DNA of 51,015 nucleotides from a virus (lineage: Duplodnaviria > Heunggongvirae > Uroviricota > Caudoviricetes). The notes under the pieces are model-generated. The model made no database searches, was not told the DNA's origin, and saw only the letters and a list, made by a program, of their open reading frames with translations. Of this stretch, positions 1-49,131 are shown piece after piece (within the stretch, counting starts at the first letter, position 1; every line of letters starts with the position of its first letter). A program made the translations under genes and the position numbers. Location of the stretch: positions 1-51,015 of the IMG/VR virus record IMGVR_UViG_2721755676_000003. One strand, written 5' to 3'.

Positions 1-1140
1 CTACACCTTCACTTTCACCCATTCGAGACCGCGATCGTTATGATACTGCGCTGTCATCCTGTCTGATGAGTGACCTAGTAGTTGCCGGGTATTGATGCCT
101 TGCCCCTCATACAGACGCTCCGATAGAGAACGCTGCTCGTGAAAAGTCGGCATTGTTTTCCCATCCTCTACGGAAATGCCAGTACTATCGATCGCGAGTT
201 TGAAGGAGACGCTAAGGCTGTTCTCGCCAACCTGATCGCCTGCTTTCACATTACCGCTTGAGGTCACGTGATGGAGAAGCCAGGGGCTTACGACCCGATC
301 CCTGCATCGCTTGATCACCTGCGCCAGTGTAATATCCAACATCTCGCAGCGTAGCGAGAGCGGTATAGCCAGTTTCGCCCCGGTCTTTTGCTGCTCAACG
401 TGGAGATGACCGTCCCAGACATCAGAGAACTTCATTTTGGCTATATCGCCGCGCCGTTGCCCGGTGACAACTGCCAGAAGCATGGAGTTTTGGACGTAGG
501 GCGCCATATTGGAGGCCGCTTCAAATATCGCCTTCCACATCTCAAGGTTCAGTCGCGAACGACTTACCCGGACAACGACTTTTCTTGTGGCTAGCGCCGG
601 GTTATATCCCGGCTCAACTTCGCCTGCGTGCTGCGCTTCTTTGAACAGGTCAATCCAGACGCTGCGGAGCGTTTGCGCCATTCGTGCTTTGCCTCTGGCT
701 TTATATTCGTCTGTAATGGCTGCCAGCATTTTGGTAGTGACTTCCTGAATGCCAATGTCAGGCATCCTTTCAACCAGTACGTTTGTGCATGTCCTTCTTG
801 ATTTAAGCGTATTAATTTTTATCTCTTTATTGCTGAGCCGCTCCTCCTGAATTTTCAGATACCGTTCAATCCATACGCGCATTCGTATCGATTTCTTGGA
901 ATTAATCTTCTTATGGCTGACCATATCTATCAGGGCAAACGACTGGGCAGCTTCCTGCTGCGCCAGCAGACGATTCAGTTCAGTGGCGGCCAGACTGGCC
1001 GCCTCTTGATCGGTACCAAAACCAATAAACTGACCGGTTAAAGGGTGACGATATTGCCAGTAGGTTTTGCTGTTACGCTTATCCAGCTTGCAATAGAGAT
1101 TTGGTATATTAATCCGGTGATTACGAGGTCTGGCCGCCAT
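1..1140 (-). CDS. int: Phage tyrosine integrase (lambda Int family)
   Basis: 379-aa ORF; C-terminal region (LAVVTGQRRGDI...HEQRSLSERLY...LLGHSSDRMTAQYHNDRG) closely matches recalled lambda Int catalytic motifs (R..H..R..Y); terminal gene reading toward the left window edge. Confidence 0.92.
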   Translation of the reverse strand: MAARPRNHRINIPNLYCKLDKRNSKTYWQYRHPLTGQFIGFGTDQEAASLAATELNRLLAQQEAAQSFALIDMVSHKKINSKKSIRMRVWIERYLKIQEERLSNKEIKINTLKSRRTCTNVLVERMPDIGIQEVTTKMLAAITDEYKARGKARMAQTLRSVWIDLFKEAQHAGEVEPGYNPALATRKVVVRVSRSRLNLEMWKAIFEAASNMAPYVQNSMLLAVVTGQRRGDIAKMKFSDVWDGHLHVEQQKTGAKLAIPLSLRCEMLDITLAQVIKRCRDRVVSPWLLHHVTSSGNVKAGDQVGENSLSVSFKLAIDSTGISVEDGKTMPTFHEQRSLSERLYEGQGINTRQLLGHSSDRMTAQYHNDRGLEWVKVKV

Positions 1141-1378
1141 TAATTACTCTCTCCATAAGCGTCTTCACCGTTTTCGGCATGTGTGGTGGAAGAACCGGCG
1201 ATGCGAGTAAACCAATGAATTTGGCCTCTTCATCGATAACCCACCGTCGACCTTGTTTCAGCGCCCTAGGCATTGTTTGTCCTGTTTTTGCAATCCTGTG
1301 CAGTGCCGCTCTGGATGGTGGTTGCTTAAAGCCGTTTGGACCGGAAGCCCAATCCTCCAGGCTAACGAGCTGTCCCAT
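1121..1378 (-). CDS. xis: Excisionase-like small DNA-binding protein
   Basis: 85-aa ORF whose 3' end overlaps the int start by 20 nt (typical xis-int arrangement); resembles recalled lambda Xis pattern (LSLEDW...GRRWVIDEEAKF). Confidence 0.6.
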   Translation of the reverse strand: MGQLVSLEDWASGPNGFKQPPSRAALHRIAKTGQTMPRALKQGRRWVIDEEAKFIGLLASPVLPPHMPKTVKTLMERVINGGQTS

Positions 1379-1437
1379 GAAAACCTCCAGTTTGATAAAT
1401 ATGAGCTATTAAAGTCAGGTAGGGTGATATTTCAGTT

Positions 1438-1680
1438 TCAGTTTGCCTGGCCGGGCAGGGAACGCAGTCGGCGCATGCCGGTCATTGGTGTGGCCACGTA
1501 GCTTGCCTTGCAGTTGACCACTTCAACCCAGACCTTCACGCCTTCCACTCTCACCGTATAGGTCTCTTTCATCTTGCTGCGCCCATAGTCGCCGTATCTT
1601 TGCTGGTGGGCTGCGAGTGCGATTTCACATGCCTGGCGAGCCAAAGGGGATTGCTTACTGCCTCGATTAATCAGTCGCAT
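1438..1680 (-). CDS. Hypothetical small phage protein (early left operon)
   Basis: 80-aa ORF co-oriented between recT and xis; no recognisable motif. Confidence 0.4.
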   Translation of the reverse strand: MRLINRGSKQSPLARQACEIALAAHQQRYGDYGRSKMKETYTVRVEGVKVWVEVVNCKASYVATPMTGMRRLRSLPGQAN

Positions 1681-1718
1681 TTCTTCTCCTTGAGGGAGGG
1701 TTTCCCCTCCCGATCTCG

Positions 1719-2804
1719 TTAGTCCACGTATTCCGGTTTCATATCCGCCAGGATGATGCTGAACTGACCATGCAGTTCGTCGCCCAGATGGCGTTTCGAC
1801 GATGCAAGAACGCGCTCTACTTCTGCGAACCGCGCAGCTGCATCGGGCTCATCTGAAGGTGGCAAGGAATTGATGGCTGCTTCGACTTTGTTCCGTGCAT
1901 CAACCAGGTAATAACGCTTCACGGCCTTGTTTTTCAGCTCAGTGAACAGGGCAGAACCCAGCGTTGATTTCACGGTTTCAATATCTGCGCGCAGAGCTTT
2001 AGCGCTATCCACATCCTGAGCCGCCTCGATGCGATCACGGAAATCATCAGCAAGTGCATCGATGTTTTGAGCTGATTCCTGAGCCATTTGAGTCGTAGTT
2101 ACGTTGTCACCTGAAATGTCTGCAAGGCTAACGTGCTGCGCCGGTGCGGGGTTTACCTCTCGTTCTTCACGGCGATCATCGAGCTCATCCGGGGTGTAAA
2201 CACCCAGAATTACATCCGGGCAGAACAGTCTCGCCCAGCGTTTGACTGCCAGGTACGCCAGCTGCTGGCGAGGGTCGTCAGCCCAGAGGGTAGAATTTCG
2301 GGTACGGGCCTGAGCCAGCAGCAAATCGAGTTCTCTCGGCTGATCTTCGCCTTTAAGCGTTGCGCGGATAATGATGCCGATCCCGGCTTCGTCAGCCAGG
2401 GTCCAGCCCGGGACGCGGTACTCGCCTTTGTCGCCTTTACGGATATTGAATTTTCCAACGACCTTTTCCCATGGCCCGTACCATTCATATTCAAAGCGGC
2501 TGGCCAGCACGCCGCTTCGTGAAATGACGGCATTAACCAGCTGCGCTTCATACCCGAGCACACCGTTAATCAGGTGCGTTTTCTGCGCCACGGCAAAGGG
2601 ATTCATCTGCCACTGTGCTGCTTGCATCGCTACAGCCATGCAGTCGGCCTGGTTGCCCTGCAGGTGTTTAGGAACGGTCGCGGTGCCTTGCGCCATGATC
2701 TGCGCAAATGTGCTGATGGCGTTCAGATACTGGGAATCGAACAGAGCCACGTTGGAGTTAATAACGGTGTTCTGGTCAGCAACGGTAACGTTTGTGTTAT
2801 GCAT
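1719..2804 (-). CDS. recT: RecT-family single-strand annealing protein
   Basis: 361-aa ORF immediately downstream of a large RecE-like exonuclease gene on the same strand; N-terminal region resembles RecT/Bet-type annealing proteins; family assignment from recall, not a search. Confidence 0.6.
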   Translation of the reverse strand: MHNTNVTVADQNTVINSNVALFDSQYLNAISTFAQIMAQGTATVPKHLQGNQADCMAVAMQAAQWQMNPFAVAQKTHLINGVLGYEAQLVNAVISRSGVLASRFEYEWYGPWEKVVGKFNIRKGDKGEYRVPGWTLADEAGIGIIIRATLKGEDQPRELDLLLAQARTRNSTLWADDPRQQLAYLAVKRWARLFCPDVILGVYTPDELDDRREEREVNPAPAQHVSLADISGDNVTTTQMAQESAQNIDALADDFRDRIEAAQDVDSAKALRADIETVKSTLGSALFTELKNKAVKRYYLVDARNKVEAAINSLPPSDEPDAAARFAEVERVLASSKRHLGDELHGQFSIILADMKPEYVD

Positions 2805-2813
2805 ATATCCCCC

Positions 2814-5558
2814 TTATGCCTGAGCGCGCAGCGCTTCGAGGCGGCGCAGGTCGAAGTCGTTCAGTTCATCTGTGTAATCGGTAGTGATCGGCGCTGGCCA
2901 TTCGCCCGTATCGAATCCGGTTGCGATGGCGCGCATTGTTTTGCGGTACTCGAGCATGCCCAGTTCCAGCAGTTCTGCGGATGCCTCAATGATGGCAATC
3001 CAGTGGTAGTTCTCGTCTTTGTTGACGAAAATCCAGAAGAACTGGTCCAGCGCCGCGGTCTCGCAATACATAGCCGCGCTGAGGTGATAGTCACGGTCAA
3101 TGATTTCCCGGTGCAGCCTGGCGCGCAGGCTTTCCTGCTTAACGTTCCACATGCTGATGGTTTTCAGGTCAGCACCGATACGCACGCCGTCCAGTTCAAT
3201 CTCGAGGTCAGGGCGTACACGCACTTCTAAACCTGTTTCGTCGTCAAAGCCGAAGTAACTCACTTCAACAGCGCGGCTTGGATGTGTCAGCAGCATGCCA
3301 GCGGTCGGGTGCGCCAGTAGTGCTGACTGAATTGCCCGCGCTGTGGCCAGCTGCTGGCGGGTAACCAGAATCTTTTCGCCAGGGTTGTCGCGCCAGGAAT
3401 CCAGCAGTTCGTCTGCGAACACTGCATCGGGCTTAACTGATTTAACCGCCTGGATCATGTCTGCTTTGCTGCCGGAGACTTTCAGCGGCGTTGGTTTCTG
3501 CGCATCCTGTGCGACCAAATCAGGATTGATGATCGCTAATTGCTCGATTAGCGCATCACGGCTGCCGCTGGTTTTAACCGGCACGGGCAGGGTGGCGTTG
3601 TACTCTTTAATGCATGCCTTCATTGCAGCTGCTGTCTGCTTCTGGCCTTCTTCAATACGCTGGTACTCAGCTGGGAGAGCCATATAGCTTTGAGCCGTTT
3701 CTTCCAGGCTCGCGCCAAGCGGCACTGGAGCGGGAAGGGCTGCGTTATGTTCTTCAAGCAACGCTTTAATCTCGTCAGCGCTCAGCAGTGCCGGCAGGCT
3801 GGCGTTGTACCCGTCGATGAACTCACGCAGAGTAGCGGTGGTAGTGAAAGCTCCCTCCGGGATCTCAGGTTCTACGCTGAACTCTGCTTCGAGGTTTTCC
3901 GGTTGCAGTGCAAGGGCGTGCACCAGATTTCCCATATCCAGCACTTTGGATGCTGTGCGCGGGATGGTTTTAGCCACATGGCGTGCGTTGAAGTACATCA
4001 GGCTGACGCGGGCATCTTTCACCTGGGTTGAGCTGATACCGTTTGCTGCGTGATAAACATCATTCGGCAGACCTTCGTAGCGGCCAGGTTCGAAGTATGC
4101 AGGGAACTCCACTTCTGGGTTCGATTCCTGAACGTCAATTGTTGTTTCCGGCAACTGGTCTGCTTCTACGGAATCTGTCTGCGAATTAGCTGCATCAGTG
4201 CCTTCGCCTGGTTGTACCGGATCAGTATTTTCGACTTTCTCTGGCTGAGTCGTTTCCATCTGCACATCGCTGGTGGTCTCCGCTGTAACCGGTGAACGGT
4301 CATCGTTCTGTGTTTGTTTTTCGTTCATCAGGTTATCGATAGTGAACATGCCATCGCCACGGTTCGTGACCTGCGGCTGCGTTGCTAACGATGCTTTTTC
4401 CGCTTCAATCTGCTCGTTAACTTCACTTTCCCAGCTCACCTCTGGATTGTGCCGCGCTGCAGCCAACGTTTCGGCTGTTGGTTTTCCATGATCGCTTTCA
4501 GTCAGATTGGCACTGATGTATCCGCTGAGGCGCCCCGGGTTTTTGTAATATTCCGGGTGTGCGCTTCTGATAAGCGCGAAGATTGATGCGCGTGAATAGT
4601 CGAGAATGCCAGGGGTATTGCGAAGAGCGGCAGACCACTCCTTGAATGGACTTTCTTTAGCTGCGACGATTTCTTTCGCCCTACGGTAAACATATCCGGG
4701 GATATCGTAGACATTGAAATCATCAGGCAGGGTGGCCAGAGCTATTTCACTGTCGAGTGTATCGAGCGTGTGTGTGTAGCCTGAATTACGATCTGTTTCA
4801 TTTCCGCCACCTGCATTTGTGCCGACGTCAGTACGCTGCACGCTGCTAATTCGGTTTCCGGCAGCCCATTCGCGAACGAGAATGCCGCGATCGATATGCT
4901 CGGTGTTGAACCAGGTCTTAAAGAAATGAATGACAAGAGACAGCTCTGTCCGCTTCCCGTCTAACGGGAAGATAGTCTTCAGAGCCTCAACAACCCTGGC
5001 AATTTCGAATTCAGTCGCTTTTTTGAACGCATCGACGTTCTCTGCAGCGAGCAGCATGTTTTGAACGTAGCTGTTATCGACATCCATCTCGAGCTGTTGA
5101 ATTTCATTCTTCTGCTCAGTGTCGATGTGATAGGCGTACTCGTCAGAAATGAACTGAGCCAGAATGCGCTGACGCAGTGGGAGCTTAGCAACCGTGATCA
5201 GCTCAGGCATCTTTGTGTCTTTGGTATCAGTAATACTGCAAGTCGACTGCTCAGAAGAGTTCTGGTAAGAATCTTCATGCTGTAACTTCTCTTTCCACGT
5301 ACGCTGGTCTTCGTCCAGTTCGTAGCGTTTGCACCAGGTGTAATCCACGGTGCTTTCTTCAGGTAGATCGTTGTAAACAGGGAAATCGGTGCGAACCGGT
5401 TTTGAGTAATCCTTACCGCGGCCGGTTTCAATACCAGCATCTTCCAGCTCGACATCGAGCTGCAGGTTGGCGCGGGCTTCAGATTTCGCAGTGAACCAAA
5501 TCACTGCATCTTCTTTGCCAGATTTCTGCGTAGCCTTAACTACATAGAAAAATTCCAT
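2814..5558 (-). CDS. recE: RecE-like exonuclease VIII (large protein with C-terminal PD-(D/E)xK nuclease domain)
   Basis: 914-aa ORF with acidic low-complexity central region and C-terminal D...ExK-like motif (RPDLEIELDGVRIGADLKT); paired with recT as in Rac-type prophages; RBS AGAGGA upstream of ATG. Confidence 0.6.
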   Translation of the reverse strand: MEFFYVVKATQKSGKEDAVIWFTAKSEARANLQLDVELEDAGIETGRGKDYSKPVRTDFPVYNDLPEESTVDYTWCKRYELDEDQRTWKEKLQHEDSYQNSSEQSTCSITDTKDTKMPELITVAKLPLRQRILAQFISDEYAYHIDTEQKNEIQQLEMDVDNSYVQNMLLAAENVDAFKKATEFEIARVVEALKTIFPLDGKRTELSLVIHFFKTWFNTEHIDRGILVREWAAGNRISSVQRTDVGTNAGGGNETDRNSGYTHTLDTLDSEIALATLPDDFNVYDIPGYVYRRAKEIVAAKESPFKEWSAALRNTPGILDYSRASIFALIRSAHPEYYKNPGRLSGYISANLTESDHGKPTAETLAAARHNPEVSWESEVNEQIEAEKASLATQPQVTNRGDGMFTIDNLMNEKQTQNDDRSPVTAETTSDVQMETTQPEKVENTDPVQPGEGTDAANSQTDSVEADQLPETTIDVQESNPEVEFPAYFEPGRYEGLPNDVYHAANGISSTQVKDARVSLMYFNARHVAKTIPRTASKVLDMGNLVHALALQPENLEAEFSVEPEIPEGAFTTTATLREFIDGYNASLPALLSADEIKALLEEHNAALPAPVPLGASLEETAQSYMALPAEYQRIEEGQKQTAAAMKACIKEYNATLPVPVKTSGSRDALIEQLAIINPDLVAQDAQKPTPLKVSGSKADMIQAVKSVKPDAVFADELLDSWRDNPGEKILVTRQQLATARAIQSALLAHPTAGMLLTHPSRAVEVSYFGFDDETGLEVRVRPDLEIELDGVRIGADLKTISMWNVKQESLRARLHREIIDRDYHLSAAMYCETAALDQFFWIFVNKDENYHWIAIIEASAELLELGMLEYRKTMRAIATGFDTGEWPAPITTDYTDELNDFDLRRLEALRAQA

Positions 5559-6302: not shown

Positions 6303-6328
6303 ATTAAAAACCCGGCACGGAGGCCGGG
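6303..6328 (-). terminator. Rho-independent terminator ending the repressor-downstream cargo operon
   Basis: Minus-strand reading: stem CCCGGC, loop CUCCGU, stem GCCGGG, then UUUUUAAUAA, beginning 5 nt after the stop of the 310-aa ORF. Confidence 0.55.
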
Positions 6329-6332
6329 TCGG

Positions 6333-7265
6333 TTAGTTAAGACTTTTAATCATATAGTTACGTCTAGAGATCTTTAATCTGTCATTATGAATTTCTGTAA
6401 CGCTAGCAACCATTGATACGTGTGAGCCTACTTTAAATCTTGACTGTATTTCACTAAGCATATCAATAGGATATGATGCCTTTATCTTTCCGTCAGCGTT
6501 CACCACTTCGAGTTTGCCATACATAGAGAGCAGTGATAGCTCACCTGTGATAATTTCATTCCACGGTTTGGATATTTCCGTGAAAGCTAACCTTTTTGTG
6601 AGCCTATCAATAGCTTCTTTGTTTAAGGAAACCGAACGCCTACCTTCACTTAACGGTCCGATCCAAGATAATTCTAGTGCTAAGCCATTTCGCTCGCACT
6701 CTTCTACAATGTTTTTAAGGTTATGCGTTGAATTCGACCCAATTTCAGCAAGTTTAGAAATAAATGAATCTTCGTCAGTGGCCTCTAGTACTGAGAAAAT
6801 TTCTTTTACAGCATGGCTAGAAACCGTATCAACCAGTTCACATGCCCCTGTGGAGAACGTTACGGCTAGCTTTGTTGAACCAGGCCTCAAATCAGCCAGT
6901 CTCATATCTAGAGACTGCTTTATCCCTACAGGTACCTTGCGTGAGTCTTTTCCTGATGAAATCCGATGTACGGCTTTTTGAACTAGGCCAGCAAGGTTTC
7001 CAGAAATGACAGAAAGTAATTCCAGAGGCATAGTTCCTGCGTCAACAAGAAAACCTTTGAACCTTAACTCCATGAAATCTTGGAGCGGGTGCTCTATCTC
7101 AGCAGATCTCAGTTCAGCCCTCAAATCGCTTAAATGGGAATCTAAGCTGCGCGCTAAAATTCTGTCGGCAAGAGTCATTTCATGAGCAGGGCCGATTTTG
7201 TTCATACGATCCTGAATGAACGCAATCCTTTGTTTTAATGGTATAAATTTTGGCTCTGTGCTCAT
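6333..7265 (-). CDS. Uncharacterised 310-aa protein, second gene of NTase-led operon
   Basis: 310-aa ORF; start ATG overlaps upstream gene stop (ATGA coupling); no motif I can assign; soluble. Confidence 0.6.
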   Translation of the reverse strand: MSTEPKFIPLKQRIAFIQDRMNKIGPAHEMTLADRILARSLDSHLSDLRAELRSAEIEHPLQDFMELRFKGFLVDAGTMPLELLSVISGNLAGLVQKAVHRISSGKDSRKVPVGIKQSLDMRLADLRPGSTKLAVTFSTGACELVDTVSSHAVKEIFSVLEATDEDSFISKLAEIGSNSTHNLKNIVEECERNGLALELSWIGPLSEGRRSVSLNKEAIDRLTKRLAFTEISKPWNEIITGELSLLSMYGKLEVVNADGKIKASYPIDMLSEIQSRFKVGSHVSMVASVTEIHNDRLKISRRNYMIKSLN

Positions 7266-7735
7266 ACTACAACCCTCGCTAAACCTTTTGGCGTTTCCTC
7301 TCTATCGTATCCAAAGCACCCTCGCCAATACATCCTGTCGTTTGTATAATCAGACTTTGGATCCCCTTTGAAAAGAGGTAAAAGGTCAATATGATAATTT
7401 AACTTTATAAAATCCCTATCCAAGAGACTTTCAACCTGAGGGGCAAACATTATAGGAATGGCATTTATAGCATCAAAATCCATAACAACTAGTATATCGA
7501 CATCATCGGGATCTAGTTTTTCAGTTGTAAATGAGCCGTCTACCCAAATTTCCAGAAAGCAATTAAATTGCTTATTAAGAACGCGCAAGTTGGTAATTAA
7601 CTGTATGAAATTACAGTATAGCATGGATCTACGAGTTGACTTAGGAAAACTATCAACACATATTTTTTTCAACTGGTTGTCATCAATATCATGAAAACCT
7701 GGTGTGAAGAGTGGCGGATAGCATTTCTTAGACAT
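7262..7735 (-). CDS. Small nucleotidyltransferase-fold protein (Pol-beta/minimal NTase signature)
   Basis: 157-aa ORF containing hG[GS]-x9-DxD-hhhh signature (IWVDGSFTTEKLDPDDVDILVVMDFD) typical of minimal nucleotidyltransferases. Confidence 0.5.
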   Translation of the reverse strand: MSKKCYPPLFTPGFHDIDDNQLKKICVDSFPKSTRRSMLYCNFIQLITNLRVLNKQFNCFLEIWVDGSFTTEKLDPDDVDILVVMDFDAINAIPIMFAPQVESLLDRDFIKLNYHIDLLPLFKGDPKSDYTNDRMYWRGCFGYDREETPKGLARVVV

Positions 7736-7860
7736 AAGAAGCGTAATCCCTTACATGTTTTAATTGAGTATGTACCAACGATTTCGGCGATACAGCCGCT
7801 CTATCTAAATCTTTTGATAACTACAAATGTTCTATGCCGCAAAAAGCCTTAAACGAAGCA

Positions 7861-8244
7861 TTAATCTTCTTGAGTACGAATCCGTCCCTTCATGTACTTC
7901 TCATACAGGTCATCTAGTTCTTTCAGACGAATCGCGAAGATGCGGAGCATGTTCTGCTGCTCTTCTTCCGGTAACTGGCGGTAGAGCTCCAGCAAGCGCT
8001 GTTCGTCCGGCTTAAGTCCATCTTTTTCACCAACGTCCTCACCGAGTAACCAGGCGACAGAAATGCCTACAGCGTCGGCTATGGCCAGTGCCGATTTCTT
8101 ACTAATCACGCCTTTTTTGAACCAGCCGTTTACGGCCTGAGGAGTGACTCCAGCTATTCGTGCCAAGTCTGCTTTTGTAACGCCGCGATCAGTGATCTCA
8201 GTAAGGCGCTCTACCAGAACGAGGTTGGGTTCTTCTTTTCTCAT
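7861..8244 (-). CDS. Prophage repressor, HTH (XRE/Cro-CI family, RacR-like, no peptidase domain)
   Basis: HTH segment GVTKADLARIAGVTPQAVNGWFKKG; divergent from cro-like gene across an operator-rich intergenic region; start chosen at MRKEE (alternative ATG at 8274); the ORF-track start at 8346 is implausible because it abuts the cro start. Confidence 0.7.
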   Translation of the reverse strand: MRKEEPNLVLVERLTEITDRGVTKADLARIAGVTPQAVNGWFKKGVISKKSALAIADAVGISVAWLLGEDVGEKDGLKPDEQRLLELYRQLPEEEQQNMLRIFAIRLKELDDLYEKYMKGRIRTQED

Positions 8245-10875: not shown

Positions 10876-11712
10876 CTAATGATGATAAATACCATCGTCT
10901 AAAGGGGGACCTTCAGCAGTAACCCCCGTGATTCTACTTGGCGGTTCAAAGATGGCCTCACCAAATATCGCATCAAACTCTGCTTTGGTGACTGATAAGT
11001 ATTGCAAGATGAGCTCTAGCAGCTCTCTGTACGTATCACAATGCCATTCAATGTGAGGACATATTTGGGAGAGAACTCTGGTCTTAAAATCATCCAGATT
11101 TTTTGGGACTTCCAGCAAGTTACCAGTGTTTAATGCTTTCGACATAAACTTGTAATTGAGCATGGAGAGAACCATTACTGATACACCTTTCTCTTGCCTT
11201 AACTGATCGAACTTCTCTTGTGCTTGAAGGCTTAGCTTGGCGTATTCGCGATCTCGTTTTGAGTTGACTGGTTCGACGTACTGAAGCGGTTCGTCTGCAG
11301 CATCACCGATACGTGGACAAAAGTATCTATTCCACCAAGCCTCAAAATACCTTTTTTGGAACTCTAGGTATGTCATCCCAATAATATTGGTGTTTTGAGT
11401 GTACTGTTTAGCACCCTGCTGAAGCCCGTGCTTTGAAATAATAAATCCAATGTTAGCCCCGGTTTCATGCATTACCGTGGTGAACGAATGGACCACCGTC
11501 TGAGGTATAGAACTACCCCAGTTTTTGCATTCCACAATGTATCTGATTTTGTCCACGCTCCTAACATCTGTAGCTAGAACATCCACATTCACCGAGCCAC
11601 GCGGTGTTTCTAAATCGACCTCGACTTCTGCAAACAAGCCAACATTACGGAATATACGTTGGACCCCTGTCTGGAGGTCTTGCCAGTTTTCTGGTAATGG
11701 GTCATCGATCAC
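10876..11712 (-). CDS. Mrr-like restriction-endonuclease-fold protein (PD-(D/E)xK) with unknown C-terminal domain
   Basis: N-terminal VDVLATDVRSVDKIRYIVECKNW (D...ExK) typical of Mrr_cat nucleases; opposite strand to the replication genes. Confidence 0.5.
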   Translation of the reverse strand: MIDDPLPENWQDLQTGVQRIFRNVGLFAEVEVDLETPRGSVNVDVLATDVRSVDKIRYIVECKNWGSSIPQTVVHSFTTVMHETGANIGFIISKHGLQQGAKQYTQNTNIIGMTYLEFQKRYFEAWWNRYFCPRIGDAADEPLQYVEPVNSKRDREYAKLSLQAQEKFDQLRQEKGVSVMVLSMLNYKFMSKALNTGNLLEVPKNLDDFKTRVLSQICPHIEWHCDTYRELLELILQYLSVTKAEFDAIFGEAIFEPPSRITGVTAEGPPLDDGIYHH

Positions 11713-12046
11713 TTTTACTTTTCCTATGCACTATCCGCATGCTTTTAAGACTACTTGAAGACACAAACGTCGTCATCCACTAAAAGGTTCAAATTTGAGA
11801 TGATAGTTCGTTTCTGGTATGAAACGAACCGTTTGAAGAGCCGAGTGCTCTGCTAAGAGCCAGGAGTGGACGTTCTCAAAGCATTGCTTACATCGAGGAT
11901 GTATTAATCAACGGGGTGCAGGTCAATTGATCCATAAAAGGTTGAATGCTCTATACTAAGCACTAGTAAAAAACATTGCACAACATACACTTAAGGTTTA
12001 AATTGCTTATCACCAAAACATAAATTTAATCATAGGCTGATGGCGT

Positions 12047-13510
12047 ATGCTAAAGGTAATTAAAAAAGGTATTGGCTTCAATAAAACAGAAAAAAGATTG
12101 ATTGAATTAGCTAATAATGCCTTTATAGGTTTGTGGTCATATCCTAATGTTTATAGTGATGAGGGTTTTGCAAAAAATAAATCGGGTAAAGAAGTGTGTG
12201 ATTTATTAGTGGTTTTTGAAAATAATGTAATTTTGTTTTCTGATAAAGACATTAAGTTTAATGATGAAATTGATATCCATATTGCATGGAAAAGATGGTT
12301 TAGGAGAGCAGTAATCGAATCAGCGACTCAACTGCATGGAGCTGAAAAATTTCTAAAAGAGCAAAGTGACAGATTATTTCTTGATAAAGAGTGTAAGGAG
12401 AGGTTTCCAATAACAATTGACAATAAGATGCGCTTTTTTTTGATCGCAGTAACTAGCAATAGCGCAATTCCAGCTTTCAATTACTTTGGTCGTATCGCGG
12501 AAGGAAGTTCTGGAACTTTAGTAAATTGCTTTCCCTTTGGAATAAAGGAAAGTATGGAGCAACCTTTTACTGTTGGAGATTTGTATCCTGATAAGACATT
12601 TATCCATGTTTTAGATGAACTATCGTTAAAATTACTATTCTCTGAGCTGGATACAATTACTGACTTCGTTGACTATTTAAAAGAGAAAGAACGAGTCGTG
12701 AGGACAGGTTTTCTTGGATTAAGTCCTGGTGAGGATGACACACTGGGTGCCTACTTGATCGGGCATGGATTAATAGTAGATGAAAAGAAGGTGCCAAAAA
12801 ACTCGTTTGTTCGAATTGCAGAGCATGAATGGACTGAACTAAAAAAATCGCAATTATATGAATATTATACAGCTCTAAAAAAAGGTAGCTATTTTTGGGA
12901 TGAAACAGTACAACGTTTTTCCGATTCCATATTAAATGCAACTGTTGGTCTAGGTAAGGAAAATGACTTTCTTAGTCATGAGGAAACATTAAGACAATTA
13001 GCCTCTGAAAGCAGAGAATCAAGATATTATTTATCTAAATCATTCTTGGATAAATTCAAGCAAGTTCCTTCTGACAGAAGAAGCTCCAGAATCGTAGAGT
13101 CTTTAGATGAAAAAGGAAAGTTTTATATTTTTTTGTTTTTTCCGCGTGAAAAACATTTATCATATGAGGAATATAGAAACGAACGTTTTTCTTGCATTCA
13201 AATGTATGCGTTAACAGCTAAATATAAATACCCACAAATAAAAAAACTCATAGTCATTGCTACTGAAAGTAAAGACTCCGAAGGTCGTTCAGAGGATGTG
13301 GTATTTTGTCGATTTGATAACCCCCTTTCAAAAGGCGAACGTCTGTTTGTACAATCAGTGATGCACGAATATAGCATACTTACTGATTTCATTCCAAAAC
13401 CGAACAATAAATTAAATTTGTCACCGATAGTTAAAAGTGACAAGAAACCTGGAAGGAATGAACCTTGTTTTTGTGGATCTGGTATAAAATATAAAAAATG
13501 CCATGGATAG
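12047..13510 (+). CDS. SEC-C motif protein of unknown function (AT-rich cargo)
   Basis: 487-aa ORF ending in CFCGSGIKYKKCHG (SEC-C metal-binding motif); strongly AT-rich relative to phage backbone. Confidence 0.6.
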   Translation: MLKVIKKGIGFNKTEKRLIELANNAFIGLWSYPNVYSDEGFAKNKSGKEVCDLLVVFENNVILFSDKDIKFNDEIDIHIAWKRWFRRAVIESATQLHGAEKFLKEQSDRLFLDKECKERFPITIDNKMRFFLIAVTSNSAIPAFNYFGRIAEGSSGTLVNCFPFGIKESMEQPFTVGDLYPDKTFIHVLDELSLKLLFSELDTITDFVDYLKEKERVVRTGFLGLSPGEDDTLGAYLIGHGLIVDEKKVPKNSFVRIAEHEWTELKKSQLYEYYTALKKGSYFWDETVQRFSDSILNATVGLGKENDFLSHEETLRQLASESRESRYYLSKSFLDKFKQVPSDRRSSRIVESLDEKGKFYIFLFFPREKHLSYEEYRNERFSCIQMYALTAKYKYPQIKKLIVIATESKDSEGRSEDVVFCRFDNPLSKGERLFVQSVMHEYSILTDFIPKPNNKLNLSPIVKSDKKPGRNEPCFCGSGIKYKKCHG

Positions 13511-13955
13511 AAAATTAGCATAATTCTATTAACTCATTGCCATTATCTTGACAAAACTAAATGGAAACTTGTCATATTTATTTCTTGAAAATATTTAATT
13601 ACTGGCTGTAGCAACTTTAACTTAGTGCGGGCATAGCTATGAATCTCCGATTGTACTGGCAGGGGGCTACAACTTTAGATGACTCACTCCCATCTTCAAC
13701 AAGCTAGCTGGCTGCCTTGTGTTGCGAGGATTCGTAATGATGATGTCAGTTTTGTCCGCTTCTGGCAAGAGGCGGACGAGATGGCTAGGCTTAAGACCTG
13801 CTGAAAGCCAGGAGCTGACATCACTACAACTTTTAATGCTAACTTCACTTAAAATAATTTTGGAATTTGCACATATGGGTTATATAAGTAAATCATCGCA
13901 ATGAGTTCTATGCGATAATTTTATATTTAGTCCCCATCTTTATCGGATGGTTCAT

Positions 13956-14729
13956 CTAAGCTTTAACTCGCCTGACAAGAGTTTTACTGCAACCTATACT
14001 GAGAAGGTGGCGTCGAAGATTTTTATCAATATGACTATCCAACGTGGTAATTAAAAACACTATATCCTCAATAACCTTAACAACATCCGAGCTTGATATT
14101 TTAGTGAGGCTTACCTTTGGTCTGTCACAATTATGGATACAATCATGTCTCCTCTGAATTAGCGAAGTATATCTGTTAGTTAGCTTTTCTAACATAGATT
14201 TCCGTTTTTTTTCTTTATCCTCTTTGGATAACTTTTTGTAAGCTGTTGGAGTGGTTCCCATAAGACGATGCTTCGCTGACTTATTTATCAACCAGTCCTC
14301 CATCATCGGCTTTGTTAATATTTTGTTTTTTTCATCCATGATATGATTGAACAAATCCTTAATTTTATCGATTGAAAGTACGTTATCTTTTTCAATCAAG
14401 TCACGTGCTGCATTTCGCCATTTCCAATTCGAAGTTGTATTCTGAGCATTCACGATAGAATTTATAGGTAACTTCAATGACCTTATCTTTGGGCTTAATT
14501 TGACATTGCTGTCAATGCTTTTTGCAATTAGGATTTTTGATAACACATCTGCAAATGCATCACAAAAATATGCATCAAGTGCTCCAATCGCAATCATCCA
14601 AGAGGCTCTATATATATCATCCTTTAGAGTCGATATAGGTAATGAATCAGCATGAGCTATAAGGTCTTTTGCTCTATTAATATCCTGATTAAAATGACTT
14701 AACGCTGTGCTTGGCATATAACACCTCAA
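13956..14729 (-). CDS. HEPN-like protein (candidate abortive-infection RNase)
   Basis: 257-aa ORF with C-terminal R-x4-H motif (LIQRRHDCIHNCDRPK) in a helical, lysine-rich protein; AT-rich. Confidence 0.4.
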   Translation of the reverse strand: MRCYMPSTALSHFNQDINRAKDLIAHADSLPISTLKDDIYRASWMIAIGALDAYFCDAFADVLSKILIAKSIDSNVKLSPKIRSLKLPINSIVNAQNTTSNWKWRNAARDLIEKDNVLSIDKIKDLFNHIMDEKNKILTKPMMEDWLINKSAKHRLMGTTPTAYKKLSKEDKEKKRKSMLEKLTNRYTSLIQRRHDCIHNCDRPKVSLTKISSSDVVKVIEDIVFLITTLDSHIDKNLRRHLLSIGCSKTLVRRVKA

Positions 14730-15040
14730 AATAAATGATTTATATGGTTAATTGGAAATGCAAAACTTAAATTTTAGTTTATACCGTTTGTTGCCAGAAT
14801 ACGATATATTCACAGATTCTAGACCATTAACATTGGCACTACAGCCAGATAATGAGTTTGAACGTACACCGTAGTATACTTTCTGATCTGCCCACCCCAA
14901 AAAAATTAGTACTATCTGGATTACCACAGTCCGCTCTTGTCACCCAAATGTTATTTTACCTTAATGACATTAGATTTCATTTGGATCAGATTGCCGCAAC
15001 TATCAGTGTGCGGCAAGTAGCTGAAGCATTCATAGAGTAT

Positions 15041-16285
15041 TTATGGGTCAAGGAGGGATTTAAACTGAGATATGGGATAGTCATATCGTTCGTTATAGAA
15101 TGCCGCAAGCTTGCAGTATTCTGCTAGGTGAGCATCTGGCCTGTATGGGACAATCGCTCCTTCAATCGATAGCTCAATACTATTAGTGACAATCAACATC
15201 AAGGCATGATCTTTAGTAAATAGTTGTTCTGAAAGTAAACGATATTTATTTTTAGGCTCGGAAATAGTTTTGAATGATTCGAACGTGTCATTAATAAACT
15301 GAAGTGCCAATGCTCCAGGTCGTTTTCCTGTCAGTTGTTTTTTTAACGCCCGCTTAGATACTTTCTCAACCTCTTTCCAAATTTGTACATCACCTGCGGA
15401 TACGACCCGAATTCCCTTTAATCGATGCTCAGAGTCATGGCAGGCCACTAACGCTGCTGTGGAGCCATGGAGTGTTTGTGCTGCATTGAAGACTACATTC
15501 TCATCAGTTTTATCTCCCAATAATGGGCAAAATTCTTCAACAACAGAAAACTTTTCGCTGTGTATATCGTTGCCTTGAGTTTCAATCTCGTCTACTAGGC
15601 GAGCCATAAATTCTTTGAAGCTTTTATCGTTCTTAGGCACAGGTTCCGTCAAAATGATGGTCAAGATACTTGCGAATCCTTCCTTTGCAGTGAGAAGTCT
15701 GTCGAGCGAGATTTTTTCCAGCAAAGCACCAATCAAGCGATGCCCATCTGCAAGACTAACAGCAAAACCTTTATCACCTGCGAAGGATTTGCACTCAAGC
15801 TCAAATGGAGGAAGCCCTTGAGGTGGGTAGACTAGAAGGTCAAAGGTCTCCTCGCCTTTACTTTCCTCTGGCCATTCAATGGAGCACCCCCTGGAGATTA
15901 GTGTTTTGGCCATATATAACTCGTACTGCAAAGCGCGCATGTCGCTGGCAAGCTTGAACGCACCCTCGAAACGTTTTTTGAGTTCCCTGGGGCCTGGTTC
16001 ACCTCTTTCCACTGCTTCACACAGTTCCACCACTCGCTGCACAAATAACATTGTCTGGAACATTGTATTCCATTCGTATCCCGCATTTAATGCATACTGA
16101 TTTCTATCCCAAAACGTCAAACCGAATGCTACTGAGTTTTCTAATTCTTCCTGTCCACCACGTCCAGCAAATTGATTTGAAAGTAACTTTATGTCCTGAA
16201 CGACCTTCAGCCAAGGCTTTAAAGGGAAAAGCTTGACTAAACGGTTATAAATATCAGGGAAGCTAAGCATAATGAGGGGCATCAA
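15041..16285 (-). CDS. Hypothetical 414-aa protein with PD-(D/E)xK-like motif
   Basis: ETFDLLVYPPQGLPPFELECKSF (D...E-x-K) suggests a nuclease fold; otherwise unrecognised. Confidence 0.45.
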   Translation of the reverse strand: MMPLIMLSFPDIYNRLVKLFPLKPWLKVVQDIKLLSNQFAGRGGQEELENSVAFGLTFWDRNQYALNAGYEWNTMFQTMLFVQRVVELCEAVERGEPGPRELKKRFEGAFKLASDMRALQYELYMAKTLISRGCSIEWPEESKGEETFDLLVYPPQGLPPFELECKSFAGDKGFAVSLADGHRLIGALLEKISLDRLLTAKEGFASILTIILTEPVPKNDKSFKEFMARLVDEIETQGNDIHSEKFSVVEEFCPLLGDKTDENVVFNAAQTLHGSTAALVACHDSEHRLKGIRVVSAGDVQIWKEVEKVSKRALKKQLTGKRPGALALQFINDTFESFKTISEPKNKYRLLSEQLFTKDHALMLIVTNSIELSIEGAIVPYRPDAHLAEYCKLAAFYNERYDYPISQFKSLLDP

Positions 16286-16790
16286 ATATTATCTCCTTAG
16301 GTCAGCGCTTAAACAAAACTCCATCTTTAATACAACGTTTAATCTGCAAGAGCATACTACAGTGAATATCTGGGCGTCATATGCCCAATGCCCGAAAGCA
16401 TAATATGTATGCCTTTTAGCTGAAACTGGCCTTCACTCTGCAGACCTGAATACGTCACAAGCAAGGACCAGAGTAGTATCGGCATTGGTTGTGAAATCTT
16501 TAATTCACATGATGAGAGCATTATGCAACGGGTACTTTAACGATGATACCGAAGCGAGAACCTTTCTTGCAGGTTCTCGCTATAGGGCTTGGTAATAGCA
16601 TGTTGCTTGTCAGTCATGCCACATACCCAAACGTTCATTCTTGCTTCCGCTTTAAAACACTCAATCCACAGAAACTACAAGTCTTCACGCTGGAAGTAAC
16701 CTGTTGTTTGTTTGGGGGGCACATAATCTCAGTAAGTTACATTGTGATCTCATAAAACGTTGCAAAATCCGTTACATAAGTTTATAAAAG

Positions 16791-16810
16791 CACTGTACAT
16801 GCATACAGTG
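16791..16810. promoter_or_regulatory. LexA (SOS) box upstream of dinI-like gene
   Basis: Perfect palindrome CACTGTACATGCATACAGTG (CTGT-N8-ACAG) about 20 nt upstream of the dinI-like ATG. Confidence 0.55.
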
Positions 16811-16828
16811 ATTCGTTGCGGAGGGAAA

Positions 16829-17053
16829 ATGAAAATCGAGCTAACCATTGATCGCATGAAGAAACTTCCTGATGGAGCTATACCTGCGCTCGAGTCAGAA
16901 CTGCTCGAAAGACTCAGCAAGCAGTTTGATGATTGCCAGCTTACGATTAGGCGTGCCAGTAATGATGGTTTGACTGTTTTCTGGGGCGACAAGAAAGAGG
17001 TCGAACATATCGTGCAGGAGACCTGGGAAAGCGCGGACGAGTGGTTTTATTAA
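16829..17053 (+). CDS. dinI: DinI-family protein
   Basis: MKIELTIDR...VQETWESADEWFY matches recalled E. coli DinI (MRIEVTIAK...LQETWESADDWF); start at internal ATG with RBS GAGGGA. Confidence 0.8.
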   Translation: MKIELTIDRMKKLPDGAIPALESELLERLSKQFDDCQLTIRRASNDGLTVFWGDKKEVEHIVQETWESADEWFY

Positions 17054-44520: not shown

Positions 44521-44646
44521 TTCAACATTCCTGTTTATGCGGGAACTTCCATTTTATTTGAGTTTAAAAAATAGTCAGATTGGTATGAGCGATCAATTTT
44601 AAATGATTGATCGCTTTTAACGATCTTTATTATCGTGAGGTAGTTT

Positions 44647-46792: not shown

Positions 46793-46929
46793 ATCTGCTC
46801 ACATAGAGTTTAGGCAATAAAATTTACAAAACTCGTAATCCGAAGCGACATAGAAACTTATAAACGAAACGGCGAAGCTTTAAACAATCAGGATAGGTCC
46901 TCTGTCTTGCATGCATACCCAAATGAAAC

Positions 46930-46949
46930 TACTGTATATAAAGACAGTA
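46930..46949. promoter_or_regulatory. LexA (SOS) box upstream of umuD
   Basis: TACTGTATATAAAGACAGTA (CTGT-N8-ACAG) about 15 nt upstream of the umuD ATG. Confidence 0.7.
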
Positions 46950-46964
46950 CAAAAGGTGTGCACT

Positions 46965-47384
46965 ATGGAATTTATCAGGCCTGCGGAACTGCGTGAAATT
47001 CTCGCTCTCCCGCTTTTCAGTGACTTAGTTCAGTGTGGTTTCCCAAGTCCAGCAGCTGATTACGTTGAACAACGTATCGATCTCAATGAGTTACTTGTCG
47101 CTCACCCGAGCTCAACGTATTTCGTCAAAGCCGCGGGCGATTCTATGATCGAAGCCGGGATCAGCGACGGTGATCTGCTGGTAGTGGACAGTTCCAGGAC
47201 TGCTGAGCATGGTGACATTGTCATCGCTGCGGTGGAAGGGGAGTTCACTGTTAAACGCCTGCAGCTGCGCCCGACCGTGCAACTCAATCCTATGAACAGC
47301 GCCTACAGTCCGATTGTTGTTGGCAGTGAAGACACACTGGACGTGTTTGGCGTTGTTACTTTCATCGTTAAATCTGCGAGCTGA
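46965..47384 (+). CDS. umuD: UmuD (Pol V accessory subunit, LexA-like S24 self-cleaving peptidase)
   Basis: [72 protein letters not shown]... near-identical to recalled E. coli UmuD; includes the Cys-Gly cleavage site and Ser/Lys dyad. Confidence 0.9.
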
Positions 47385-47386
47385 AC

Positions 47387-48655
47387 ATGTTTGCGCTCTG
47401 TGATGTGAATTCGTTTTACGCATCATGCGAGACGGTGTTTCGGCCCGATTTGAGAGGGCGGCCAGTAGTTGTTCTCTCGAATAATGACGGCTGCGTAATC
47501 GCGCGCAGCGCCGAGGCCAAAGCCGCCGGAATTACCATGGGAGAGCCTTTCTTTAAGCAAAAGGATCTATTCCGGCGCGCTGGTGTTGTTTGCTTCAGCA
47601 GTAACTACGAGCTGTACGCAGACATGTCGAACCGGGTAATGACGACGCTTGAGGAAATGAGCCCCCGCGTCGAAATTTACAGTATCGATGAAGCTTTTTG
47701 CGACCTGACTGGCGTTCGCAACTGCCGGGACCTGACTGACTTCGGCAAAGAAATTCGTTCTACGGTTCTAAAGCGTACGCACCTGACGGTTGGGGTTGGA
47801 ATTGCGCAGACAAAAACGCTCGCTAAGCTGGCCAATCACGCCGCGAAGAAGTGGCAGAGGCAGACGGGTGGAGTTGTTGATTTGTCCAATATCGATCGCC
47901 AGCGTCGGTTATTGGCAATTGTGCCTGTGGAGGATGTCTGGGGCGTCGGCAGGCGCATCAGTAAGAAGCTAAACGCCATGGGCATCAAAACGGCTCTGGA
48001 TCTCTCAGAACAAAGCACATGGATTATCCGTAAACATTTTAACGTGGTACTCGAGCGAACGGTCCGGGAGTTGCGCGGAGAGCCTTGTCTTGAGCTGGAG
48101 GAGTTTGCGCCGGCAAAGCAGGAAATCGTCTGCAGCCGATCGTTCGGCGAGCGCGTCACGGACTATGAGCAGATGCGTCAGGCTATCTGCAGCTATGCGG
48201 CGCGTGGCGCCGAAAAGCTTCGCGGCGAGCATCAGTATTGCCGTTTTATCTCGGCGTTCGTTAAGACGTCACCTTTTGCCCTGAATGAGCCATATTACGG
48301 TAATAGTGCGTCCATGAAGCTTCTTACTCCCACTCAGGATTCCCGCGACATCATCAACGCCGCGGTAAAGTGCCTGAACAAAATCTGGAAGGACGGCCAC
48401 CGCTATCAAAAAGCAGGAATCATGCTTGGGGATTTTTTCAGCCATGGTGTGGCTCAGCTCAACTTGTTCGATGAGAACGCGCCGCGCGAAGACAGCGCGC
48501 AACTGATGCAGATCCTTGACCAGCTCAATGCCAAAGGAGGAAAGGGCACACTCTACTTTGCAGGGCAGGGAATTCAGCAACAATGGCAGATGAAGCGAGA
48601 AATGCTTTCTCCGCGGTATACGACCCGCTTCCAGGATTTATTAATTGTTAAATAA
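47387..48655 (+). CDS. umuC: UmuC (Y-family translesion DNA polymerase V catalytic subunit)
   Basis: [41 protein letters not shown]... canonical UmuC N-terminus; 422 aa. Confidence 0.92.
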
Positions 48656-48723: not shown

Positions 48724-49131
48724 ATGTTAAAACCTATTCTCGCATTAGCAGTTCTTACCTTATCTGGGTGTGCAATTATCCAAGAGCCTCCAAAACATGG
48801 CACTCCTGACGCTGTATATACGACTAAGAGCGATGCAAAAAGCGTTGCATTATGCATTGCTGATGTCTTTGCAGATTACGACCCTTACATCAAAGCTCGC
48901 TATAAAGAAGAATTCTGGGGTTATAAAATTAATTATTCCGCCGGGCAATATGGCGAAGCTGAAATTTACAAGAAAAATAACGTTACCACTGTGAATTATT
49001 TTGGTCAGAATAATTCAGACAAGAAAATGGTAAAGCATCTTAAAGACGGCATCCAAAAATGTGTAAATAAGGTGTACGACATGTCTCCAGTGGGTGGTAA
49101 GCAGCCAGATGGAAGCGTAAAACTCTGGTAA
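48724..49131 (+). CDS. Lipoprotein of unknown function
   Basis: Signal peptide plus lipobox (LAVLTLSGC); AT-rich. Confidence 0.55.
   Translation: MLKPILALAVLTLSGCAIIQEPPKHGTPDAVYTTKSDAKSVALCIADVFADYDPYIKARYKEEFWGYKINYSAGQYGEAEIYKKNNVTTVNYFGQNNSDKKMVKHLKDGIQKCVNKVYDMSPVGGKQPDGSVKLW

Follow-up and report, generated by a model that had tools for sequence, protein, structure and literature searches.

The window, that is, the whole 51,015-nt stretch of DNA analysed here, is a lambdoid prophage in which a CII-like gene, O, P, a low-GC cargo island, a non-coding gap, dinI, a phrog_340 gene, ninB, rusA and Q follow one another in that order. The cargo island (10876–16285, GC 0.28–0.45) lies between P and dinI, where it occupies the slot held by an lprI-family gene in related prophages. 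It encodes an Mrr_cat nuclease (- strand), a 487-aa SEC-C-motif protein (phrog_18195, + strand) and two proteins of 257 aa and 413 aa that belong to no family. The island is possibly an anti-phage defence cluster; its PADLOC matches were weak. At the left end of the gap, the last island gene starts on the - strand at ATG 16282 or TTG 16285, giving a protein of 413 or 414 aa. Measured from this start to the dinI ATG at 16829, the gap spans 543–546 nt, not the roughly 470 bp of non-coding DNA reported in the initial annotation. The flanking genes and signals are as follows:

15041–16282, - strand: gene for the 413-aa cargo protein, without a family match, now in the place of lprI
16760–16810, + strand: dinI promoter (TTGCAA, 17 nt, TATAAA) with a LexA box, CTGT-N8-ACAG (16793–16808)
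16829–17053, + strand: dinI, 74 aa (PF06183, 3.3e-21)

The LexA box, CACTGTACATGCATACAGTG (16791–16810), is strong and overlaps the start region of the dinI promoter; our terminator scan falsely flagged it on the - strand. Homologues of umuD and umuC are encoded at 46911–48655, near the right end of the window and beside the prophage tail region.

Proteins identical to the 413-aa product and to DinI were found mainly in genomes of the Enterobacter cloacae complex, and a search for relatives of the 413-aa protein in viral contigs found none. Some NCBI records with exact copies of these proteins, including one 5.0-Mb contig, are labelled Escherichia coli. Yet none of 5,426 complete RefSeq E. coli genomes matched the intergenic DNA, and Enterobacter accounts for all remaining carriers of the exact proteins, which suggests that the E. 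coli labels reflect either a mislabelled assembly or rare transfer.

The feature under study is a perfect palindrome within the gap, to which no strand applies:

16553–16563: 5' arm of the palindrome, AGCGAGAACCT, 100% complementary to the 3' arm
16564–16570: loop of 7 nt, TTCTTGC, in the opposite orientation to that of all imperfect variants (consensus GCAAGGC)
16571–16581: 3' arm of the palindrome, AGGTTCTCGCT, at whose 3' edge lprI-derived DNA meets phage backbone

It had been described as a perfect hairpin at 16553–16580 with a 9-bp stem. The quoted sequence and its perfection were confirmed, but the length and span were not: an outer pair (A16553–T16581) and an inner pair (T16563–A16571) extend the stem to 11 bp over 16553–16581. 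Six of the 11 pairs are G-C. Folded as RNA, each strand reaches approximately −18 kcal/mol; for DNA the value is −11.8 kcal/mol (z = −6.1). We also confirmed the lack of a T-run after the stem: the + strand continues with ATAGGGCTTGG and the - strand with TCGGTATCATCG, and the terminator scan flagged nothing at this position.

This is the longest perfect hairpin of the window. In Markov-simulated windows, stems of at least 11 bp with a loop of 3–12 nt were expected 0.105 times and were present in 10.5% of windows. Stems of at least 9 bp occurred four times in the window against 1.8 expected, and the 9-bp version is unremarkable. Judged from the window alone, the significance of the palindrome is therefore mild. 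Because relatives of the window carry the same perfect or imperfect palindrome, the site is inherited and not a chance match. The other perfect hairpins lie at 44588–44615 (10-bp stem, also starting with AGCGA and ending with TCGCT), at 11806–11829 (9 bp, between the divergent Mrr_cat and SEC-C genes) and at 48992–49017 (9 bp).

Relatives of the locus were retrieved from viral and metagenomic contigs using patterns from the dinI promoter and from the conserved block to the left of the hairpin. The retrieved loci, many of them Enterobacter prophages, are ~85% identical to window positions 16446–16848. In all of these loci the DNA further left differs from the cargo of the window and encodes, on the - strand, a 317-aa lipoprotein of the lprI family (PF07007/DUF1311). 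The gap and its right flank comprise the following segments:

16446–16581: segment A, which ends with the hairpin
16446–16552, - strand: segment A without the hairpin, a remnant of the lprI upstream region (promoter/5' leader), ~85% or ~73% identical to DNA preceding lprI
16586–16748: segment B, phage backbone
from ~16749: segment C, the dinI promoter and gene

The segments occur in different combinations. Loci L179–L187 have segment C only and are prophage remnants beside host genes, so the dinI module is conserved on its own; in one of them, L187, a Peptidase_S24/IMS pair lies immediately 3' of dinI. Phage PHB10 has segments B and C without the hairpin, its homology beginning at ~16586. Conversely, L175 and L177 carry lprI and segment A followed by unrelated DNA directly after the hairpin (homology ends at ~16581). 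Further joints fall at ~16640 (a homology break in L168 and L173) and at ~16515 (L209). When the intergenic DNA was compared by megablast and blastn with a phage collection and complete E. coli genomes, the only match was to PHB10, and only over 16700–16827. The PHB10 record (L150; MK524177.1, ‘Escherichia phage’) encodes a gluconolactonase, an aromatic alcohol reductase and a transcriptional regulator at its positions 1–3549, in the slot upstream of dinI; these metabolic-looking genes are either unusual phage cargo or host DNA inside the record. Seventeen contigs with exactly the same island as the window are 99.6–100% identical to it in the gap, too alike to carry comparative information.

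Segment A and the hairpin site also precede lprI well outside the Enterobacter prophages. They do so, at ~73% identity, in Klebsiella plasmids of ~110 kb that are non-mobilizable and of phage-plasmid type, and before the chromosomal lprI of Citrobacter and Yersinia rohdei (~73%). The same arrangement was found in three IMG/VR contigs of about 87–111 kb and in one E. coli contig, where the neighbouring gene is of phage type. The hairpin site lies about 190–220 nt upstream of the lprI start. After the 3' arm, the Klebsiella, Citrobacter, Yersinia and E. coli copies go on with TGAACTTAA..., whereas the Enterobacter prophages diverge to segment B. Since homology runs past the hairpin in these four non-lambdoid contexts and not in the Enterobacter prophages, the hairpin is the last lprI-derived piece at the backbone joint. 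The unit common to the Enterobacter prophage and the Klebsiella plasmid measures ~1.23 kb (6320–7549 in locus L157) and ends inside the 3' arm. A second, imperfect hairpin (GCTGGTG.CCAG ... CTGG.CACCAGC) follows directly on the lprI stop codon (L157 6320–6383), separated by 19 nt from the unit's left boundary, such that hairpins adjoin both unit ends.

These positions bear on the suggestion in the initial annotation that the palindrome is an insertion scar, which of its three readings comes nearest. It does sit exactly at the joint between captured DNA and backbone, but it was not created by the insertion, since an imperfect site already precedes chromosomal lprI in Citrobacter and Yersinia. 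On the reading that we favour, enterobacterial chromosomes were the source of an accessory unit (moron), an lprI-family (DUF1311) gene with ~215 nt of upstream DNA, which came to lie between the replication genes and dinI of lambdoid Enterobacter prophages, with a separate capture by the Klebsiella phage-plasmids. In the window, lprI was later exchanged for other cargo to the left of ~16446, leaving ~135 nt of its upstream DNA (16446–16581) as an orphan.

To compare the state of the site across copies, we tabulated 13 variant types and read two more by eye (L209 and L210–212). Eleven of the 13 tabulated types are imperfect, with 6–10 Watson–Crick pairs out of 11, and the two types read by eye are likewise imperfect and unflipped. 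A perfect stem (11/11) was found only in the window and in the Klebsiella allele K2. The same two carry an inverted loop (TTCTTGC in the window, GCCTTGC in K2), all others having a (G/A)CAAGGC-like loop. The perfect state and the flipped loop thus coincide in two of two cases, and no imperfect variant has a flipped loop. Read as its reverse complement, GCAAGAA, the window loop agrees with that of L176, GCAAGTA, at 6 of 7 positions; read forward, it agrees at 0 of 7. In the commonest Enterobacter clade the site has eight Watson–Crick pairs, one G-U pair and a 2 × 2 internal mismatch (−6 to −8 kcal/mol), and in Citrobacter and Yersinia 6 of the 11 pairs are Watson–Crick. The inner half-sites, AACCT and AGGTT, are nearly invariant across the Enterobacter, Klebsiella, Citrobacter, Yersinia and E. 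coli copies, in contrast to the outer arm sequence, which is not conserved. The arms of the window differ from its relatives at 3 of 22 positions and the loop with its immediate flanks at 16 of 33 (Fisher p ~0.007). Selection could produce this contrast, or it could be the conservation of arms that self-correction predicts, and part of it is the loop flip itself.

The two Klebsiella alleles point to how the perfect state arises. K1 and K2 differ at 14 of 1361 aligned columns, and five of these differences fall within 13 nt of the hairpin. The K2 loop and 3' arm together are the exact reverse complement of the K1 5' arm and loop, so that all five hairpin differences can be accounted for if the nascent strand switched once to the complementary strand and then returned. 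The window shows nearly the same relation: its loop and 3' arm match the reverse complement of the 5' arm plus an L176-type loop at 17 of 18 positions. Yersinia has hybrid arms, with a Klebsiella-like 5' arm and an Enterobacter-like 3' arm. For the matched changes that separate the arms of Enterobacter (GAGAACC/GGTTCTC) from those of Klebsiella (GGAAACC/GGTTTCC), the best account is therefore conversion running in opposite directions, not selected compensation.

We therefore consider it probable that the palindrome is the outermost relic of the lprI upstream region, perfected by a replication template switch and without a specific role for dinI or the present cargo. In the native setting and in most phage contexts the site is only an imperfect quasi-palindrome. 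During replication, a nascent strand would jump to the complementary strand within it and copy the 5' arm and loop as their reverse complement, and a single such event would both flip the loop and make the 3' arm an exact complement. A close relative of the window lineage with an unflipped, imperfect site was sought, and none was present among the 17 same-island contigs (99.6–100% identical); for the window's own lineage we accordingly infer the switch from more distant relatives and by analogy with Klebsiella. Parsimony within the Enterobacter group makes the arm sequences of the window look ancestral, and an old perfect palindrome that decayed elsewhere, with the loop alone flipping here, would fit the sequences equally well. 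The absence of a dedicated function is likewise inferred.

Template switching of this kind has precedents. It has been described as correcting imperfect inverted repeats to perfect ones over evolution in proteobacteria (PMC5941160), and quasi-palindrome template-switch mutation has been studied in E. coli (PMC7202029). The E. coli lacZ quasi-palindrome reporters and the proteobacterial comparison show the same one-step change from an imperfect to a perfect repeat, the same clustering of changes inside the repeat between near-identical flanks, and the same exact complementarity of the new arm. In contrast to those systems, ours would be a natural case in mobile DNA that appears to have arisen twice at one orthologous site. 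It also differs from the intramolecular fold-back of the lacZ reporters in that both events flipped the loop, which requires a switch to the complementary strand. Recurrent flips of hairpin loops between short inverted repeats are known from plastid DNA (PMC6824564), and for small inversions of this type in non-coding plastid DNA that paper cites Kelchner and Wendel 1996. Those ‘flip-flop’ minute loop inversions likewise recur independently among close relatives and introduce several apparent substitutions at once (PMC6824564), whereas here they are found in enterobacterial prophages and plasmids, and the flip coincides with homogenization of the arms.

A more active part for the same process is conceivable. 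The quasi-palindrome may act as a boundary element that renews itself and through which the lprI unit is captured and exchanged, with replication stalling and strand switching both maintaining the palindrome and creating joints to new backbones. Three breakpoints within ~5 nt of its 3' edge would fit this, as would the second hairpin, 19 nt from the opposite end of the unit. Were this so, hairpin-driven template switching would be a general entry route of accessory genes into phage genomes; we regard it as distinctly improbable.

Other readings give the site a function in RNA. The initial annotation proposed an sRNA element, which was not borne out: Rfam gives no match, neither a promoter nor a terminator was indicated, and most relatives have a weak stem. 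Rfam 15 returned no matches over the whole window at the gathering threshold, and at a permissive threshold the best score within 16200–16900 was 19.3 bits against a threshold of 51.5 (E = 0.56). This was to the plastid ccsA-ndhD hairpin, which we rejected as a homologue because the likeness is a sub-threshold coincidence of stem sequence. Among 12 distinct Enterobacter-type sequences, 82.6% of cells were paired compared with 81.9% in shuffles (192 of 500 shuffles as high), the covariation score was reached in 65 of 500 shuffles with one pair showing a double change, and the alignment fold had essentially no covariation term on either strand. Alternatively, the + strand stem-loop might lie in a rightward leader that continues into an ORF at 16600 and then dinI, acting as a 5' stabilizer or as a barrier to processing or exonucleases. 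The stem ends 18 nt before the ATG of this 40-codon ORF (dN/dS 0.04–0.08), and the + strand folds better than the - strand in most imperfect variants because their mismatches are G-U (−16.6 versus −9.0 kcal/mol for the alignment fold). One-sided changes in the first variant set gave G-U six times and A-C once (p = 0.06), but this bias became weaker after the addition of Yersinia and L210, which both have A-C mismatches. Moreover, the site and the putative leader occur apart: Klebsiella, Citrobacter and Yersinia have the site without ORF or dinI, the site travelling with lprI, and PHB10 and L179–L187 have dinI without the site. Variability is highest in the 18-nt spacer (15 of 18 columns), the stem of the commonest clade is weak (just −6 to −8 kcal/mol), and consensus and PWM scans of both strands near the hairpin, its upstream side included, found no convincing promoter. 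We consider a leader function unlikely. Three candidates were set aside in these searches: a −10 element GATGAT (16542–16547), which would start transcription at the stem base and has no −35; a CII-type reading of the loop and 3' arm (TTGC-N6-T(C)GC), which exists in the flipped state only; and an extended outer helix (TCYC/GRGA), which is not kept consistently.

The site might instead be read as DNA. A putative protein-binding palindrome, the third suggestion of the initial annotation, could regulate the lprI promoter from upstream, and here be an orphan or act on the replacement cargo. The near invariance of AACCT ... AGGTT over copies from five genera and the fixed position about 190–220 nt before the lprI start would suit such an operator, and the replacement (breakpoint ~16446) kept the upstream DNA, as expected if usable control signals lay inside it. 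However, the half-site centres are ~18 bp apart and so face opposite sides of the helix, the outer arms diverge, the loop flips without consequence and no candidate regulator is encoded within the unit; on balance the sequences make a binding site doubtful. The invariant half-sites could also belong to an RNA element in lprI regulation, but nothing in the data calls for a regulatory role of the quasi-palindrome. We judged it very unlikely that the palindrome is a terminator or an insulator bounding the accessory unit. Morons, the accessory units of lambdoid phages, typically have a promoter on one side and a terminator on the other, and are reportedly flanked by stem-loops and intrinsic terminators (Juhala et al. 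2000). The palindrome resembles these in being a stable G+C-rich stem-loop at the boundary of an accessory unit in the early-right operon, and the lprI unit has a hairpin at its other end too. Unlike moron terminators, it is followed by no U-tract on either strand, whichever variant is considered. It is found at the promoter-distal upstream edge, upstream and not downstream of the leftward gene, and pre-exists in the chromosomal source locus; no + strand gene ends just before it, and the stem is degenerate in most copies.

A dispersed element, either a REP-like or MITE copy or the footprint of an excised insertion sequence, would also be a short perfect palindrome in non-coding DNA adjoining an accessory island, and REP and BIME elements are similarly short intergenic palindromes of enterobacteria. 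REP-like recurrence, also raised in the initial annotation, was not seen: the window has one copy, even when up to 3 mismatches or any loop of 3–12 nt are allowed, and each related locus has one. The exact 29-mer was absent from viral contigs; an 18-mer of left flank and arm, tried in the same contigs, matched an unrelated phage coding region and was discarded. A scan of representative genomes for the stem with a variable loop was estimated to yield ~170 chance matches in 596 Gb; the matches obtained were about as frequent as chance predicts, and among the 80 listed all were isolated and in unrelated taxa, none of them Enterobacteriaceae and none with this loop. The flanks GATACCGA and ATAGGGCT share no direct repeat. 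In contrast to REP and BIME, the site is single-copy, has no copy family and is orthologous across genera, chromosomes included, at a fixed position before lprI. A dispersed origin is thus highly improbable, and a chance palindrome without history is barely conceivable. For the latter, a stem of at least 11 bp would be expected 0.1 times in a window of this size, but every homologous copy that we examined, across five genera, has a palindrome or quasi-palindrome here.

Most likely, then, the palindrome is ordinary, and nothing indicates a terminator, an sRNA or a repeated element. For annotation, the hairpin should not be labelled as any of these, and a link to dinI regulation is not evident. 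Under the template-switch reading, mutation, through arm conversion and loop flip, can leave a perfect palindrome in mobile DNA that is no functional signal. Template switching can also mimic compensatory changes between genera without structural selection, which calls for caution in covariation-based RNA discovery.

The comparison also orders the local history, with capture of lprI followed by the present cargo in its place, and exposes a candidate small ORF beside dinI:

16600–16755, + strand: candidate unannotated small ORF, 51 aa, MLLVSHATYPNVHSCFRFKTLNPQKLQVFTLEVTCCLFGG followed by a variable tail; the first 40 codons are conserved

Its ATG at 16600 follows the palindrome by 18 nt and belongs to the backbone segment B, not to lprI-derived DNA. 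Over the first 40 codons, the ORF differs from the main clade of relatives at 12–15 positions, of which 10–14 are third positions (dN/dS 0.04–0.08); compared with L210 and L176, dN/dS is 0.24–0.6. The tail is altered by a 1-nt indel near 16720. The ORF has decayed in some relatives, with stops in L166, a shortened form in L209 and complete loss in PHB10. Only three database proteins, all small, resemble it, and it is hardly ever predicted by gene callers. We rejected the idea that an antisense ORF causes the third-position bias, since the wobble-aligned antisense frame contains a TGA in 10 of 18 clade members. We also rejected a coding role of the hairpin itself within a longer ORF (16543–16755, KREP..QVLA): its hairpin part shows no purifying selection, and this ORF is interrupted in L154, L157 and L175 and lacking from Klebsiella. 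In L157 the small ORF is in frame with dinI and forms a 150-aa ORF (7571–8023), whose extension does not match the DinI PHROG profile; this fusion is an accident of that sequence, the two being out of frame in other clade members.
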